This document shows positions 28,738-43,166 of a stretch of 64,000 nt of DNA, piece after piece. Numbering within the stretch: position 1 is the first letter of the stretch; each line of letters begins with the position of its first letter. The notes under the pieces are model-generated. The model had not been told where the DNA came from. It was given only the letters and a program-made list of their open reading frames with translations, and did no database searches. Position numbers and translations under genes: made by a program. Source of the stretch: an uncultured Anaerolineales bacterium (lineage in GTDB: Bacteria > Chloroflexota > Anaerolineae > Anaerolineales > UBA11858); the NCBI GenBank assembly GCA_964458115.1, contig CAYWIC010000001.1:11984-75983 (forward strand), written 5' to 3'.

Positions 28738-29886
28738 ATGAATACTTCTCCCAATCCCATCGAAATCACCTGCTCGCGCGACTTTTTAGTTTGGCTCTCA
28801 CAAGAACACATTAGTATCGCCTTCACCACGTACCAGACGAACCGTCTGTTTATGCTGGGCGTCAAACAAAATGGCGCACTTTCTGCCATTGAACGACTTC
28901 TCGATCGCCCGATGGGGTTGTTCGCCCAGCGCGACCGCCTGTATGTGGGTTGCCGCTACCAGATCTGGCAGTTCGATAATGCCCTGCCACCGGATGCGAC
29001 CCATAACGGCTACGATGCCTTGTACGTTCCCCGCCGCAGCTACACTACCGGTGATGTTGATGTGCATGATGTACGTCTGGATAATAATGATGACCGTCTG
29101 GTGTTTGTCAATACACTTTATAGCTGCCTAGCGACAATCAGCGAACGCTATAGTTTCAAACCGATTTGGCAGCCCACTTTCATTTCTAAACTGGTCCCTG
29201 AAGACCGCTGCCATCTCAATGGCTTGGCAATCGTAGACGGACAGCCCCGCTACGTCACGGCTGTTTCCCACTCTGATTTGCAAAACGGCTGGCGGAAACA
29301 ACGTGAAAATGGGGGAATTTTGATTGACGTCCAGACCAATGAAATCCTGCTTGACAACCTTTCTATGCCTCATTCCCCTCGCCTATATCAAGATAAACTC
29401 TGGCTACTCAACGCTGGCAGCGGCGATCTAGGTTACGTAGATTTGAGAGCGGGGCTATTTGAGCCGGTGGTATTCTGCCCGGGATTTGCCCGCGGGCTGG
29501 CTTTCCACAAAAACTATGCCATTGTCGGTCTCTCCAAACCTCGGAGGGTCAAAGCTTTTGAAGGTCTCAGCCTGGAGGATCGACTGACTGATAATGAGAG
29601 CGATGCTATCTGTGGACTGGCGGTGATCGACCTGACGAGCGGCAGCGTGGCTCATTGGCTCAAAGTTGAGGGCCTGATAAGCGAACTTTACGATATTGAA
29701 GTGCTCCCAGACGTGCGCCGTCCGATGGTCCTGGGTTTCAAATCCGATGAAATATGCCGTTTTGTCTCTATCGACTACCTCAATGCCGACCCAGTATTCC
29801 AGGAGATCAAGAAAAATCCAGAGAAATATTCTGCTCCGATAGATTTTCTCGCATTGCAGAATGCGGAAACCAAGGATCGGCCTTAA
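28738..29886 (+). CDS. TIGR03032-like conserved hypothetical (beta-propeller-like) protein
   Basis: SIAFTTYQTNRLFMLG...ERLLDRPMGL pattern, recalled from the TIGR03032 family. Repeated beta-strand-rich blades. Confidence 0.45.
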   Translation: MNTSPNPIEITCSRDFLVWLSQEHISIAFTTYQTNRLFMLGVKQNGALSAIERLLDRPMGLFAQRDRLYVGCRYQIWQFDNALPPDATHNGYDALYVPRRSYTTGDVDVHDVRLDNNDDRLVFVNTLYSCLATISERYSFKPIWQPTFISKLVPEDRCHLNGLAIVDGQPRYVTAVSHSDLQNGWRKQRENGGILIDVQTNEILLDNLSMPHSPRLYQDKLWLLNAGSGDLGYVDLRAGLFEPVVFCPGFARGLAFHKNYAIVGLSKPRRVKAFEGLSLEDRLTDNESDAICGLAVIDLTSGSVAHWLKVEGLISELYDIEVLPDVRRPMVLGFKSDEICRFVSIDYLNADPVFQEIKKNPEKYSAPIDFLALQNAETKDRP

Positions 29887-30134
29887 AATTTCAAATACCC
29901 ATCCAACCATGGGAATTCAGTTACACGGCCCCGCCTGACCTAAATATTTACGTCGGTTTTATAGACTCCCACTTCTACCCCCGATACACTCACATAAGCA
30001 ATCAACCAACATTGGGCATGGATTATCTTTTGATTTAAGCACTTGAATAATCGTGTGCTCAAAATTTCATCGCCTAACAGTGTTCAATCTACGTGCATTT
30101 CATAGAAATGGCATCATCATACGGAGTCATCAGC

Positions 30135-32042
30135 ATGGTAGATCAAATGGTTTCACAGTCAACCGCGGTCCCCCAGATGAATAACGCCCAAAAGTCATCT
30201 GAAGAGAGCAATCGTTCGGATTTTTTGTTCATCTGGTTGCGCATCCAATGGTTGAAATCTCGCCTGGCTTACATTCTCTCTCGACTACGTGCGCTGCACT
30301 TCCGCCGCGGCTGGGGTTCTCGCTCCAGGAGAGAACTCAACCGAATAATGAAGGCCGCTGCATCAATGTTATTAGCTGCCTCGATGTTGCTGGTTCCCCT
30401 CAGCCCGGCTTACTCCGCGGATGTCACGTTTGCCGAACGGACGGGCATAGACAATCCCTTCAACGGCGTGGATGTAGGAAATACCAGTTCTCCCAGATTC
30501 GTGGACATAGATGGGGATGGCGATATGGATGCCTTCATTGGAGAATATGGTGGCTCTGTTTTCTACTATAAGAACACCGGCACAAATCTAGCCCCCAAAT
30601 TTACCCAACAAACTGGCGCCGACAATCCCTTAGACAGCGTGAGTACGGGAACAAACAGCGTACCCAGTTTTGTGAATGTGGATGGAGATGGCGATATGGA
30701 CGCCTTCATCGGGGCTGGGAATGGAAAAATACTCTATTATAAGAACACCGGTACAAACCTGGCCCCAGTCTTCACCCAACAAACCGGCGGCGATAATCCC
30801 TTCGACGGCGTGGATGTGGGTGACGATAGCGCGCCAACCTTCGTGGACGTGGACGGGGATGGGGATATGGATGCCTTCATTGGGGCATTTGACGGTACGA
30901 TCTATTACTATAAGAATACCGGTACCAATCTAGCTCCAGTCTTCAACCAGCAAACCGGCGCTGATAACCCCTTTGATGGGGTGGATGTGGGGAGCGCAAG
31001 CAAACCCAGCTTCGCAGATATAGATGGGGATGGGGATAAGGATGCCTTCATTGGGGCTGACGATGGAAAGATCTATTATTATGAGAATACCAGCCCACCT
31101 CCCTCATCAGACGAAGGCGGCGATGACGCTGCTGATGCCGGCAGTGACGATAGCTCCGGATGCAGTTTTGGAGTAGGGGAATCGGGCGGTACGTATAACT
31201 GCGATTTGGGGAAGGTAGTAATCCCCGCGGGCACCGTCGATGATGCCTGTCAACTGGTCATCGAAGAGAGCTCTAGTGGAAACTTCAAGCTGGGCGATCA
31301 GGTTTATGACGTCAAGCTGATCTGCAACGGCCTGAATGTGACACAGCTTCCCAAGTCAGTCAAGGTATGCATCCGGCCTACGGTAGGGGGCACGGCGGGA
31401 AAACAGCTCTTTCACCAGCATAGCGGAGCCAGTGTTTTCACACCGCTGAATGTTGTGGGTGGTCCGGCTGGTCATGTCTGTGGAGAGACCAGCAAACTCT
31501 CGCTCTTTGGTCTGGGGACGTTGCAACTGCCCGATACCGGATTCGCACCAGGGGCGGTGACATTGCTCGAAGAGCAACCTGCTGAGATCATCTATTCGGC
31601 GACAAGGGATTTGCGTTTGGAGATACCCACTTTGGGCGTGGAACTGCCCATCGTTGGGATTCCGCTGACTGGGCAAGGCTGGAATGTCACTTGGCTCGAT
31701 GAGTCTGCTGGCTATCTCGAGGGGACAGCCTACCCGACCTGGGCGGGCAACACTGCCCTGACTGCCCATGTTTGGGATGCAAACAATCAGCCGGGGCCTT
31801 TCGTGAACCTACACAAATTGCAGTTTGGGGATCAAATCTTTATCAAAGCCTGGGGAAAGACCTACACCTACGAGGTGCGTGATGTTATGCAAGCGCGTCC
31901 AAGTGACCTGAGCACTTTGCCCCACGACGATTACGACGTGTTGACGCTGATCACCTGTCAGGGCTACGATGAATCCAGCGGGGAGTACGATTGGAGATTA
32001 GCTGTGAGGGCTGTGCTCGTATCAGTAGACATTAATCAGTAA
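30135..32042 (+). CDS. FG-GAP/VCBS-repeat protein fused to a C-terminal sortase domain
   Basis: Four 59-aa repeats (DxDGDGDMDAFIG..G.I.YYKNTGTNLAP.FTQQTG.DNPF). The C-terminus has sortase His (ALTAHV), TLITC and RLAVRAV motifs. The ATG at 30135 follows GGAG; alternative starts are 30093 and 30348. Confidence 0.75.
   Translation: MVDQMVSQSTAVPQMNNAQKSSEESNRSDFLFIWLRIQWLKSRLAYILSRLRALHFRRGWGSRSRRELNRIMKAAASMLLAASMLLVPLSPAYSADVTFAERTGIDNPFNGVDVGNTSSPRFVDIDGDGDMDAFIGEYGGSVFYYKNTGTNLAPKFTQQTGADNPLDSVSTGTNSVPSFVNVDGDGDMDAFIGAGNGKILYYKNTGTNLAPVFTQQTGGDNPFDGVDVGDDSAPTFVDVDGDGDMDAFIGAFDGTIYYYKNTGTNLAPVFNQQTGADNPFDGVDVGSASKPSFADIDGDGDKDAFIGADDGKIYYYENTSPPPSSDEGGDDAADAGSDDSSGCSFGVGESGGTYNCDLGKVVIPAGTVDDACQLVIEESSSGNFKLGDQVYDVKLICNGLNVTQLPKSVKVCIRPTVGGTAGKQLFHQHSGASVFTPLNVVGGPAGHVCGETSKLSLFGLGTLQLPDTGFAPGAVTLLEEQPAEIIYSATRDLRLEIPTLGVELPIVGIPLTGQGWNVTWLDESAGYLEGTAYPTWAGNTALTAHVWDANNQPGPFVNLHKLQFGDQIFIKAWGKTYTYEVRDVMQARPSDLSTLPHDDYDVLTLITCQGYDESSGEYDWRLAVRAVLVSVDINQ
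30436..31094 (+). repeat. in-frame tandem repeats (~177 bp x4) encoding FG-GAP units
   Basis: Near-identical GATGGGGATGGCGATATGGATGCCTTCATTGG blocks recur with a 177-bp period. Confidence 0.7.
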
Positions 32043-41567: not shown

Positions 41568-43166
41568 CTATGGTTGCCCTCCTGAGCCCGTCGAAGGGCC
41601 ACCCTCTGGAGGCGGTCCACCACCGCCAGGGCCACCTTCGGGCACACAAGCTAGCGTACTTTGGATATTTGTACAGCTACCGTCTAGGGTTCCTCGTGGA
41701 GTATTGATGGTACAGGCTGCCCCTTCACTCGAGGCTGAACAAGCATCGATGGCTTCCTGGGGGGGTGATCCCTGATCGCCCGGGCCTTGTCCCAAACCAG
41801 TTGAAGGGAGTTGGCCAGCTTGCTGCTGAGATTGACTTGCAAACTCAGAACCAGTTCCAATGTTTGGGTCCGTTTCGCCGCCGGTGAGAACTTCTCCGGT
41901 GGTGCCGCCGGTTACGCAGCGGGCATAGTTGTAGATGCGTACGGCGTCACCTTGCGGGCCATGGCCTGTTGGATAAACAGAAGGATCACCACTTTTTTGC
42001 TCAGCCCGTTGAGCCCCAGCGCCATGGACATCCATCCAGGTGCCGTTCATATAGCCCATCGAGCGACCGAAGTTGATGTATACACCCGAACGACTAAAGC
42101 CATCAGCATTGGTGTGTGTGGTGCTGCTCCAATAGGCTGGATAATCTGATTGACCAGCTTCGTTCGTGATCAGAGTGACATTGAAGATAGGATCGATGGC
42201 TGCTGAGTTGGTTGTGTCTGGTGAGCGAGAGTAATCGATGATGCTGTGCAACTCTTTGGCATTGGGGAGACGCCAATCGCTAATTCCACCATAATCCAGG
42301 CTGGAGCAGTAATTCAAAGCACCTTCCCAGTCCAGTGAATTACCGCTATCGGATTGCATCCAGGTCAGGCCGGTTGCATTGTCGGTTACCATGCCGTTGC
42401 CCTCATCGACGAATTCGTTGACTCCGTAGCTGGTGTTGTCGCGTACGTAGATTACGAAGAAAGTTTTGGCAGAGCGGCCATGCAGCGCTTCAGTCCCGTA
42501 GCCCTTGATGCGTCCATCGGCAAAGTTGACACCAAACATGGTTTCATGGCCGTTCATGGTGGTGCTGACATATCTGGTGCTGGTAGCCCACTGAGAGTCG
42601 ATGATACGATCACCGCTGGATGTGTCTCCATACTTGAAGACGAAGTAATCGGTATCGATGAAAGGAATTCCTGTGCAGGTTCCTTCTTCGACACACCGGC
42701 TGACGTCGGTGCCGCTGAAATCGATCAATGAATAAAGCTCTTTGATGGTAGGTAAGCGCCAATCGTTGTACCCACCCAAAGTCAGACTGGAAGCACCCGC
42801 AACCGCTTGGTTGTAGGTCATCTTCTCGCCAGGATCCTGCTGCCATATCAAACCTGTCACCAGGTCGGTCACTGTGCCGTCACCATTATCCTGGTAGCTT
42901 GCCTGGGTGCCGACGACCTGACCATCCTGTCCGTAGAAGGATTTGCCTTCTTCGGGGCAGGGGATGCTGGTTGAATCGCTATAGCAGTATTCCTGTCCAG
43001 TATCAACGATGGCATAACTATAGACAGATGCGTTGGCAGTGTCTTGCTCTGCAGTTGGGGCAAGTGAGTCAGCGCTAACTGAAGTCAGAGGGTAGACTGC
43101 TCCGCTGGCTGATAATATGAAAGCGATTGCGATTGCAATCATTAGGGTTTTTCTTTTCTTGTTCAT
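41568..43166 (-). CDS. secreted protein with two DUF1566 (Lcl C-terminal-like) domains and C-terminal 4-Cys module
   Basis: A signal peptide, then WRLPTIKELYSLID and WRLPNAKELHSIID motifs. The C-terminus is PPQEAIDACSASSEGAACTINTPRGTLDGSCTNIQSTLACVPEG plus a Gly/Pro tail. Confidence 0.65.
   Translation of the reverse strand: MNKKRKTLMIAIAIAFILSASGAVYPLTSVSADSLAPTAEQDTANASVYSYAIVDTGQEYCYSDSTSIPCPEEGKSFYGQDGQVVGTQASYQDNGDGTVTDLVTGLIWQQDPGEKMTYNQAVAGASSLTLGGYNDWRLPTIKELYSLIDFSGTDVSRCVEEGTCTGIPFIDTDYFVFKYGDTSSGDRIIDSQWATSTRYVSTTMNGHETMFGVNFADGRIKGYGTEALHGRSAKTFFVIYVRDNTSYGVNEFVDEGNGMVTDNATGLTWMQSDSGNSLDWEGALNYCSSLDYGGISDWRLPNAKELHSIIDYSRSPDTTNSAAIDPIFNVTLITNEAGQSDYPAYWSSTTHTNADGFSRSGVYINFGRSMGYMNGTWMDVHGAGAQRAEQKSGDPSVYPTGHGPQGDAVRIYNYARCVTGGTTGEVLTGGETDPNIGTGSEFASQSQQQAGQLPSTGLGQGPGDQGSPPQEAIDACSASSEGAACTINTPRGTLDGSCTNIQSTLACVPEGGPGGGGPPPEGGPSTGSGGQP
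41634..41765 (-). other. 4-Cys module, copy in DUF1566 protein
   Basis: PPQEAIDAC-x8-C-x12-C-x8-CVPEG. Confidence 0.6.

Follow-up and report, generated by a model that had tools for sequence, protein, structure and literature searches.

The general view of sortases is that of stand-alone enzymes, anchored in the membrane, which have housekeeping or pilus functions and act on separately encoded substrates. A gene in a 64,000 nucleotide stretch of DNA from an uncultured Anaerolineales bacterium (contig CAYWIC010000001.1, positions 11,984 to 75,983; here referred to as the window) raises the question of what a sortase acts on when it forms the C-terminal end of an exported repeat protein. The open reading frame (ORF) of this gene is located on the forward strand (30093–32042, stop codon included) and runs uninterrupted over 649 aa from a GTG at position 30093. 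A first-pass annotation had described the product as an exported protein in which a sortase domain is joined to FG-GAP repeats, and had considered the fusion unusual when compared to textbook sortases. Both points were borne out: the matches to PF04203, FG-GAP_3 and FG-GAP exceeded the Pfam cutoffs, a hydrophobic signal segment was present, and our comparison with known sortases supports the unusual nature of the fusion. We lean towards a reading in which the FG-GAP array represents the cargo of the protein rather than a recognition module, and the sortase domain replaces the membrane anchor and processes a sorting signal of its own.

An LPxTG motif in front of the sortase domain

The motif LPDTG (aa 479–483, 31527–31541, + strand), recognized in the sequence and in the alignments of homologs, is located on the same chain 26 aa ahead of the sortase domain and is followed by an invariant Phe484. 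According to the first-pass annotation no LPXTG-type C-terminal sorting signal was visible in any protein of the window. This holds true for the canonical C-terminal form with a transmembrane (TM) helix and a basic tail, but the LPDTG motif of the sortase protein itself had been missed.

Two alignments, of 33 module sequences (A1) and of 121 sequences (A2), were used for the analysis of conservation. The residues L, P, T and G as well as the following F were invariant in all 33 sequences of A1, and position x was free. Among the best 120 homologs, 106 carried LPxTGF and 11 the variant [MIVYA]PxTGF; the remaining 3 were N-terminal fragments. The pattern xPxTGF was also found in 134 of the 137 further cluster representatives listed, with 16 different residues at x. 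The distance from the L of the motif to the catalytic Cys was similarly constant, with 139–145 aa in 98 of 101 sequences (mode 143) and 140–146 aa in 128 of 134 further representatives. For the window protein, which has a signal peptide and scored 294.6 bits against the module profile, this distance was 143 aa, with 27 aa following the Cys. Judged by its conservation pattern, the motif behaves as a true LPXTG, being fixed at L, P, T and G and variable at x, which is the signature of substrate recognition.

Motif and strand beta-1 of the sortase domain are connected by a conserved linker of the type FAPGxVTxLxxQPxxxxY (aa 484–508, 31542–31616, + strand), situated at the position of the class C lid. 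Within this linker, column P16 of A1 was nearly invariant and column Y31 invariant.

A search with the whole protein was swamped by FG-GAP proteins, and a sortase was present in none of the 120 top matches. When the non-repeat half (aa 357–649) was used, 547 proteins were retrieved. Where names were given, the protein was a "sortase" or "LPXTG-site transpeptidase family protein" and the organism a member of Chloroflexi or Anaerolineae. With a profile of the LPxTGF-sortase module, the fusion was found widely in other genomes, namely in 1,436 protein clusters (50% identity representatives) at E ≤ 1e-30 and at no fewer than 582 genome loci. The locus-level details given here refer to the best 80 of these at least 582 loci, almost all of which came from metagenome-assembled genomes (MAGs) of Anaerolineales or Anaerolineae (Chloroflexota). 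Several loci can be present per genome, with five in CAZLNX01 and three in CAYTKR01.

In the members examined, the module was located at the extreme C-terminus, and a median of 26 aa followed the Cys in the 137 further representatives listed. The proteins of this set reached up to 4,446 aa, 47 of them being longer than 1,000 aa, and at the 80 loci the reading frame upstream of the module often exceeded the 6 kb flank. A signal-peptide-like hydrophobic N-terminus was found at the start of 27 of 39 complete family ORFs. The passenger domains were diverse and comprised DUF11, DUF7507, SBBP, Chlam_PMP, SdrD_B, FG-GAP, beta-helix and Ig-like domains, the first six of which are typical of wall-anchored adhesins. 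Additionally, tandem gene pairs were found in which each gene carried an LPxTGF-sortase module of its own (L043:3109-6531, L050:367-6513 and L057:4120-9842). Both copies of the L050 pair had identical motif regions with the variant motif APPKTGF.

LPxTGF and sortase domain thus present themselves as a conserved, portable C-terminal module. Since the module stands behind unrelated passengers, the FG-GAP array would be one of many interchangeable cargos. The proposal of the first-pass annotation that the repeats serve as a substrate- or surface-recognition module is not supported by this distribution.

The sortase catalytic domain (aa 509–649, 31617–32039, + strand) was identified by Pfam, TIGR01076 and Foldseek. 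PF04203 matched aa 509–643 with 74.4 bits (E 8.7e-21, cutoff 26.6) and TIGR01076 scored 48.1 bits (cutoff 39.35). The catalytic residues, all encoded on the + strand, are His559 in NTALTAHVW (31767–31769), Cys622 of the TLITC motif in VLTLITCQG (TGT, 31956–31958) and Arg635, the first R of WRLAVRAV, 13 aa past the Cys (31995–31997). They were placed correctly in the first-pass annotation and all three were invariant in both alignments (His and Arg being H89 and R165 in A1, H203 and R279 in A2, respectively), whereas the second R of WRLAVRAV varied between homologs. The C-terminus is reached 27 aa beyond the catalytic Cys, without a TM helix. According to these matches and the structural model, the domain is to be regarded as a genuine sortase that appears catalytically intact.

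The assignment to the sortase superfamily was well above cutoff, but none of the class models compared (C, D, E, F and GN; class A and B were not among the families listed) reached its cutoff. The class C model NF033745 scored best with 57.8 bits (cutoff 160), and the D, E, F and GN models of NCBIfam had 16.7–39 bits (cutoffs 140–166). The class models were matched only weakly by all 33 module sequences, class C having the best E-value (9.6e-21). The LPxTGF-sortase module would belong to a clade outside the curated sortase classes compared here. The closest solved structures by sequence were class C pilus sortases (E 6.7e-17).

Structure modelling covered aa 357–649 and yielded a sortase fold together with an all-beta middle domain. 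The AlphaFold 2 (AF2) model calculated with the 121-sequence alignment had a mean predicted local distance difference test (pLDDT) value of 95.3 and a predicted template modelling (pTM) score of 0.87. Foldseek related this model to sortases of the classes C, D and E (E 1e-10, root mean square deviation (rmsd) 2.2–2.4 Å, ~143 columns), with a probability of 1.00 for many sortase structures, and the eight-stranded beta-barrel of the sortase fold was recognized. When the profile was aligned to Ebp, a class C sortase of Enterococcus, TGFAPG was located opposite PGLDPF with a comparable spacing to strand beta-1. PGLDPF we take to be the DP[FWY] lid, known to occupy the active site of class C sortases. 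The window protein lacks DP[FWY], and its lid-equivalent segment reads LPDTGFAPG. The LPDTG coil had a pLDDT of ~95 in the deep-alignment model and the linker (aa 484–508) of at least 92. From the pLDDT of the coil and the pTM of 0.87, a defined position of the motif, packed between two domains, is predicted.

To find candidates for separately encoded substrates, a filter was applied which required, in the 45 C-terminal residues, the pattern [LIVNS][PA]x[TSA][GANS] with a hydrophobic stretch and then a basic tail behind it. The tails of protein A (SpA), M6 and InlA, used as controls, passed this filter. No canonical substrate with LPXTG or LAXTG, TM helix and basic tail was found in the window or in the 816 kb around the 80 family loci. 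Furthermore, no pilin gene with LPXTG, TM helix and tail was located next to the module in the window or at these loci. The window protein, which carries the only sortase module of the window, fails the filter as well: its LPDTG is followed by FAPGAVTLLEEQP and then by the sortase domain, without a hydrophobic helix and basic tail, and no TIGR01167 match was among the families listed for it.

Among the substantial ORFs of the window, just one more contains an LPxTG: a secreted Lcl_C (PF07603) protein (41568–43166, − strand) has an internal LPSTG at aa 466. The motif is followed by a Gly/Pro/Cys-rich tail. Due to the lack of a TM helix or basic tail after the motif, this protein was rejected as a substrate in trans, and its LPSTG is probably a chance motif by sequence. 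A separate observation concerns an 897-aa ORF beside a family member (L021:6920-9613, + strand), the C-terminal end of which is CLGGFLPLGLVAAGWFFRRRR. This tail consists of a hydrophobic helix and a basic tail without LPXTG and could possibly represent a different C-terminal sorting signal in the same organisms.

Proposed processing of the own sorting signal and rival explanations

The position of a nearly invariant LPxTG between every cargo and its sortase domain makes the protein itself the most likely substrate, and the statement of the first-pass annotation that the substrate was unknown is no longer supported. The layout of signal peptide, adhesin-like passenger, LPxTG and sortase reads as that of a sortase substrate in which the anchor has been swapped for the enzyme. 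We propose that the passenger, composed of four FG-GAP repeats, linker and beta-sandwich domain, would be exported by the Sec signal peptide. The LPxTGF segment at the class C lid site would then have access to the active site on the same chain or on a sister molecule. Attack of Cys622 on the Thr482-Gly483 bond would lead to a thioester of the passenger at its Thr and would free a sortase module of ~166 aa with the new N-terminus GFAPG. An amine nucleophile would resolve the thioester, resulting in an FG-GAP passenger which is covalently fixed to the envelope; as acceptor, the stem peptide of peptidoglycan or a different envelope protein would be most likely. With water in place of the amine, the passenger would merely be released. 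The enzyme, present once per molecule, would be used a single time. Architecture, motif conservation, fold, triad and distribution were observed; cleavage, its mode in cis or trans and the acceptor are what we infer from them.

Processing within the same chain is chemically feasible, because engineered SrtA-LPETG fusions cleave themselves (PMC2901362). The several paralogs per genome and the tandem pairs, each gene with a module of its own, support the proposed self-processing. A general model, put forward here tentatively, is that in Anaerolineae each surface protein may carry its own single-turnover C-terminal sortase, which would cleave a lid-like LPxTG and transfer the passenger covalently to the envelope.

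Several points weigh against self-processing. Phe484, Pro486 and Tyr501 behind the motif are invariant or nearly so, unlike in ordinary sorting signals, and a permanent lid fits this conservation as well as a poised substrate does. The AF2 model of the 179-aa module alone, based on 33 sequences, left the motif disordered (pLDDT <50). The search for separate substrates was confined to the window and the gene neighbourhoods. Additionally, neither of the predicted cleavage products would have an obvious membrane tether, which makes access to lipid II unclear.

Part of these points would be explained if LPxTGF were a permanent, uncleaved lid or pseudo-substrate that inhibits a conventional transpeptidase acting on separate substrates, with the FG-GAP array and signal anchor only positioning or targeting the enzyme, which is essentially the idea of the first-pass annotation. 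In favour of such a lid, the closest solved relatives are class C sortases, which carry a lid, and the motif aligns with its position. The (near) invariance of Phe484, Pro486 and the downstream linker suggests structural docking, and the high-confidence model shows the segment as a fixed element. To our knowledge, however, the known class C DP[FWY] lids do not use a cleavable consensus. Here L-P-x-T-G is kept exactly with x free, as in a substrate-recognition signature. Furthermore, neither the window nor the surroundings of the 80 loci contained separate canonical substrates or pilin genes, and the passengers belong to families that typically serve as cargo. Targeting of an enzyme would hardly account for several paralogs in one genome, tandem pairs and passengers of more than 2,000 aa. 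We therefore regard a permanent lid as unlikely, albeit the most serious competitor of self-processing.

As a variant of self-processing, LPDT|G could be cleaved and the thioester hydrolysed, so that the module would serve only as a maturation protease or as a pro-domain that removes itself, and the FG-GAP passenger would end as a soluble or non-covalently bound exoprotein. All evidence from the architecture applies equally to such a release, and the lack of a membrane tether after signal-peptide cleavage gives no guarantee that lipid II is close by. As is well established for sortases, the acyl-enzyme is hydrolysed when a nucleophile is unavailable. On the other hand, the full transpeptidase fold and the conserved Arg are kept in 1,436 clusters (E ≤ 1e-30) although much simpler autoproteolytic solutions exist, and the passenger domains resemble anchored adhesins; we consider autoproteolytic release distinctly improbable. 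An artefact, either two genes fused by mis-assembly or a frameshift or a sortase domain that is an inactive relic, could be suspected from the ambiguous start codon and the odd in-frame leader of 85 codons preceding the signal peptide. Nevertheless, the ORF is equally continuous in an independent MAG and has the same neighbours there, the architecture is common to hundreds of independent loci, and His559, Cys622 and Arg635 are invariant. This explanation, to which we give hardly any credit, is effectively refuted by the ortholog and by the architecture of the whole family, and the joining of two genes by a sequencing error, which the first-pass annotation had considered, is excluded by the continuous ORF of the ortholog.

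Passenger, gene and genomic setting

The precursor carries a Sec-type signal peptide or signal anchor, MKAAASMLLAASMLLVPLSPAYS (aa 86–108, 30348–30416, + strand), with AYS|A as the likely cleavage site, both read from the sequence. The passenger begins with four tandem FG-GAP/VCBS-type repeats of 57 aa (aa 113–333, 30429–31091, + strand; Pfam, Tandem Repeats Finder). FG-GAP_3 (PF13517) matched with 52 bits (cutoff 26.9) and FG-GAP (PF01839) with 33 bits (cutoff 22.1). Tandem Repeats Finder reported a period of 171 nt, corresponding to 57 aa, and 3.4 copies; the four units were laid out by eye. The first-pass annotation was correct with regard to the number and type of the repeats, but had described them as near-identical units of 59 aa, whereas their pairwise identity was 58–76%. 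All four repeats contain a D-x-D-G-D-G-D-x-D motif that resembles a calcium loop (DIDGDGDMD-type).

The syntenic ortholog of the gene was found by a scan of a genome collection in an uncultured Anaerolineales MAG (CAYTKR010000004, 4420–6540; here referred to as L001). It has five FG-GAP repeats instead of the four in the window, and the indel comprises exactly one 57-aa unit. The unstable repeat number between close relatives speaks against a closed propeller in which the number of blades is fixed.

The repeats are followed by a Pro/Ser/Asp/Gly-rich acidic linker (aa 334–356, 31092–31160, + strand; read from the sequence) and a middle domain of 120 aa with seven Cys (aa 357–476, 31161–31520, + strand; AF2), which stops two residues before LPDTG. 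The Ser/Asp linker and the beta-rich middle domain of the first-pass annotation are therefore present. In the AF2 model the middle domain consists entirely of beta-strands arranged in a beta-sandwich (pLDDT 87–97), and its packing against the sortase domain was modelled with confidence (pTM 0.87). It is present in the closest module-bearing homologs, i.e. those covering at least 85% of the query. Sequence searches of Pfam and PDB gave no match for the middle domain, and Foldseek with the 293-aa model (aa 357–649) retrieved only sortases and no fold match for it.

To determine the start codon is difficult. That the sequence forms a single ORF, as given in the first-pass annotation, was confirmed, but the ATG at 30135 used there is just one of three candidates, the others being GTG 30093 and ATG 30348. 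A GGAG is located 9 nt upstream of ATG 30135 and an AGGAG 16 nt upstream of ATG 30348; the latter start would yield a precursor of 564 aa that opens with the signal peptide. The in-frame, Arg-rich leader of 85 codons 5' of the signal peptide (30093–30347, + strand) is of putative coding status and would be either an N-terminal extension of the protein located in the cytoplasm or a 5' leader. A Pfam search of this leader gave no match. Compared to L001 it had 97% nucleotide identity and 7 substitutions without third-position bias, and because of this high identity and the small number of substitutions the comparison of orthologs did not discriminate between the start codons.

The continuous ORF of L001 shares 92% identity overall with that of the window. 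The identity declines along the gene, from 98–100% in signal peptide, repeats and linker to 91% in the middle domain, 81% in the LPDTG linker and 85% in the sortase domain. Either the C-terminal module evolves faster or it is exchanged among the several paralogous modules of the genome, as far as the sequences suggest.

Directly upstream of the sortase gene, a DUF4915 protein (E 3.7e-139) is encoded (28738–29886, + strand). As in the window, the ortholog in L001 is flanked by the DUF4915 gene upstream and by genes for a histidine kinase and a response regulator downstream. The intergenic region between the DUF4915 and the sortase gene (~29940) contains an insertion of ~108 nt in L001 which is missing in the window. 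DnaE and acetyl-CoA synthetase are also encoded in the window, which is chromosomal DNA; similarity to and synteny with this one MAG assign it to Anaerolineales and to a close relative of the L001 bacterium. The neighbouring genes (DUF4915, MFS transporters, methyltransferase, histidine kinase/response regulator, MscS and arylsulfotransferases) had no evident functional link to the sortase gene. Scans of the window for promoters and terminators and with PADLOC yielded nothing exceeding background.

Comparison with known systems

The components of the protein are known, but their combination into a portable C-terminal module of sorting signal and enzyme is apparently undescribed as far as found. 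Neither a natural LPXTG-sortase fusion nor sortases of Anaerolineae were described in the full texts covered by our literature search, which had most subscription journals outside its scope, and an earlier report may exist. The fusions described in these texts were all engineered ones. If the proposed processing is true, the module would represent a seventh, 'self-sorting' class of sortases and a route of surface display with the enzyme in cis in Chloroflexota, a phylum whose envelope biology is poorly known. The lids of class C sortases might then have descended from a substrate in cis, or have given rise to it, which is an evolutionary link that can be tested. Furthermore, the module would account for many Chloroflexi proteins annotated just as "sortase", and protein engineering with sortases could possibly gain from it natural tags that cleave or ligate themselves.

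FG-GAP/VCBS repeat proteins resemble the window protein in the four repeats that scored above cutoff, and thousands of homologous repeat proteins exist. The difference is the sortase, which was found in 0 of the 120 top repeat homologs. An integrin-type propeller has seven blades, whereas the window protein and its ortholog have four and five, respectively, with a variable copy number.

Class C sortases, i.e. E. faecalis Ebp SrtC (24rr), A. oris SrtC-1 (2xwg) and S. pneumoniae SrtC-1 (2w1j), were the best sequence match among the solved structures and were also among the best structural matches (rmsd 2.2–2.4 Å). They share with the window protein the His-Cys-Arg triad, the TLxTC motif and a conserved segment ~25 aa before strand beta-1 at the lid position. 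The window protein differs by LPxTGF in place of DP[FWY], the lack of a C-terminal TM helix and of neighbouring pilin genes, the fusion behind a large exported passenger and the occurrence in Chloroflexota rather than in Firmicutes or Actinobacteria.

Proteins with a canonical Gram-positive sorting signal (TIGR01167-type) are similar with regard to the signal peptide, the adhesin-like passenger and the LPxTG with variable x close to the C-terminal end of the passenger. Instead of the hydrophobic helix and basic tail, the window protein carries a sortase module of 166 aa, and the Phe after the Gly is invariant.

Enzyme and LPXTG on one polypeptide are also found in engineered self-cleaving sortase fusions (Mao's SrtA-LPETG-target design; BISOP), for which self-cleavage at the motif was shown experimentally (PMC2901362). 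These fusions are artificial, have the reversed order of sortase, LPETG and target, and were designed for tag removal, not for anchoring.

Finally, the Hedgehog Hint domain, the C-terminal domain of the type IX secretion system (T9SS) and the beta-domains of autotransporters are unrelated to the sortase module in fold and chemistry and can serve as an analogy only. The logic they share with it is that of a portable C-terminal module on diverse passengers which carries out or directs a single covalent processing or attachment and is then lost.

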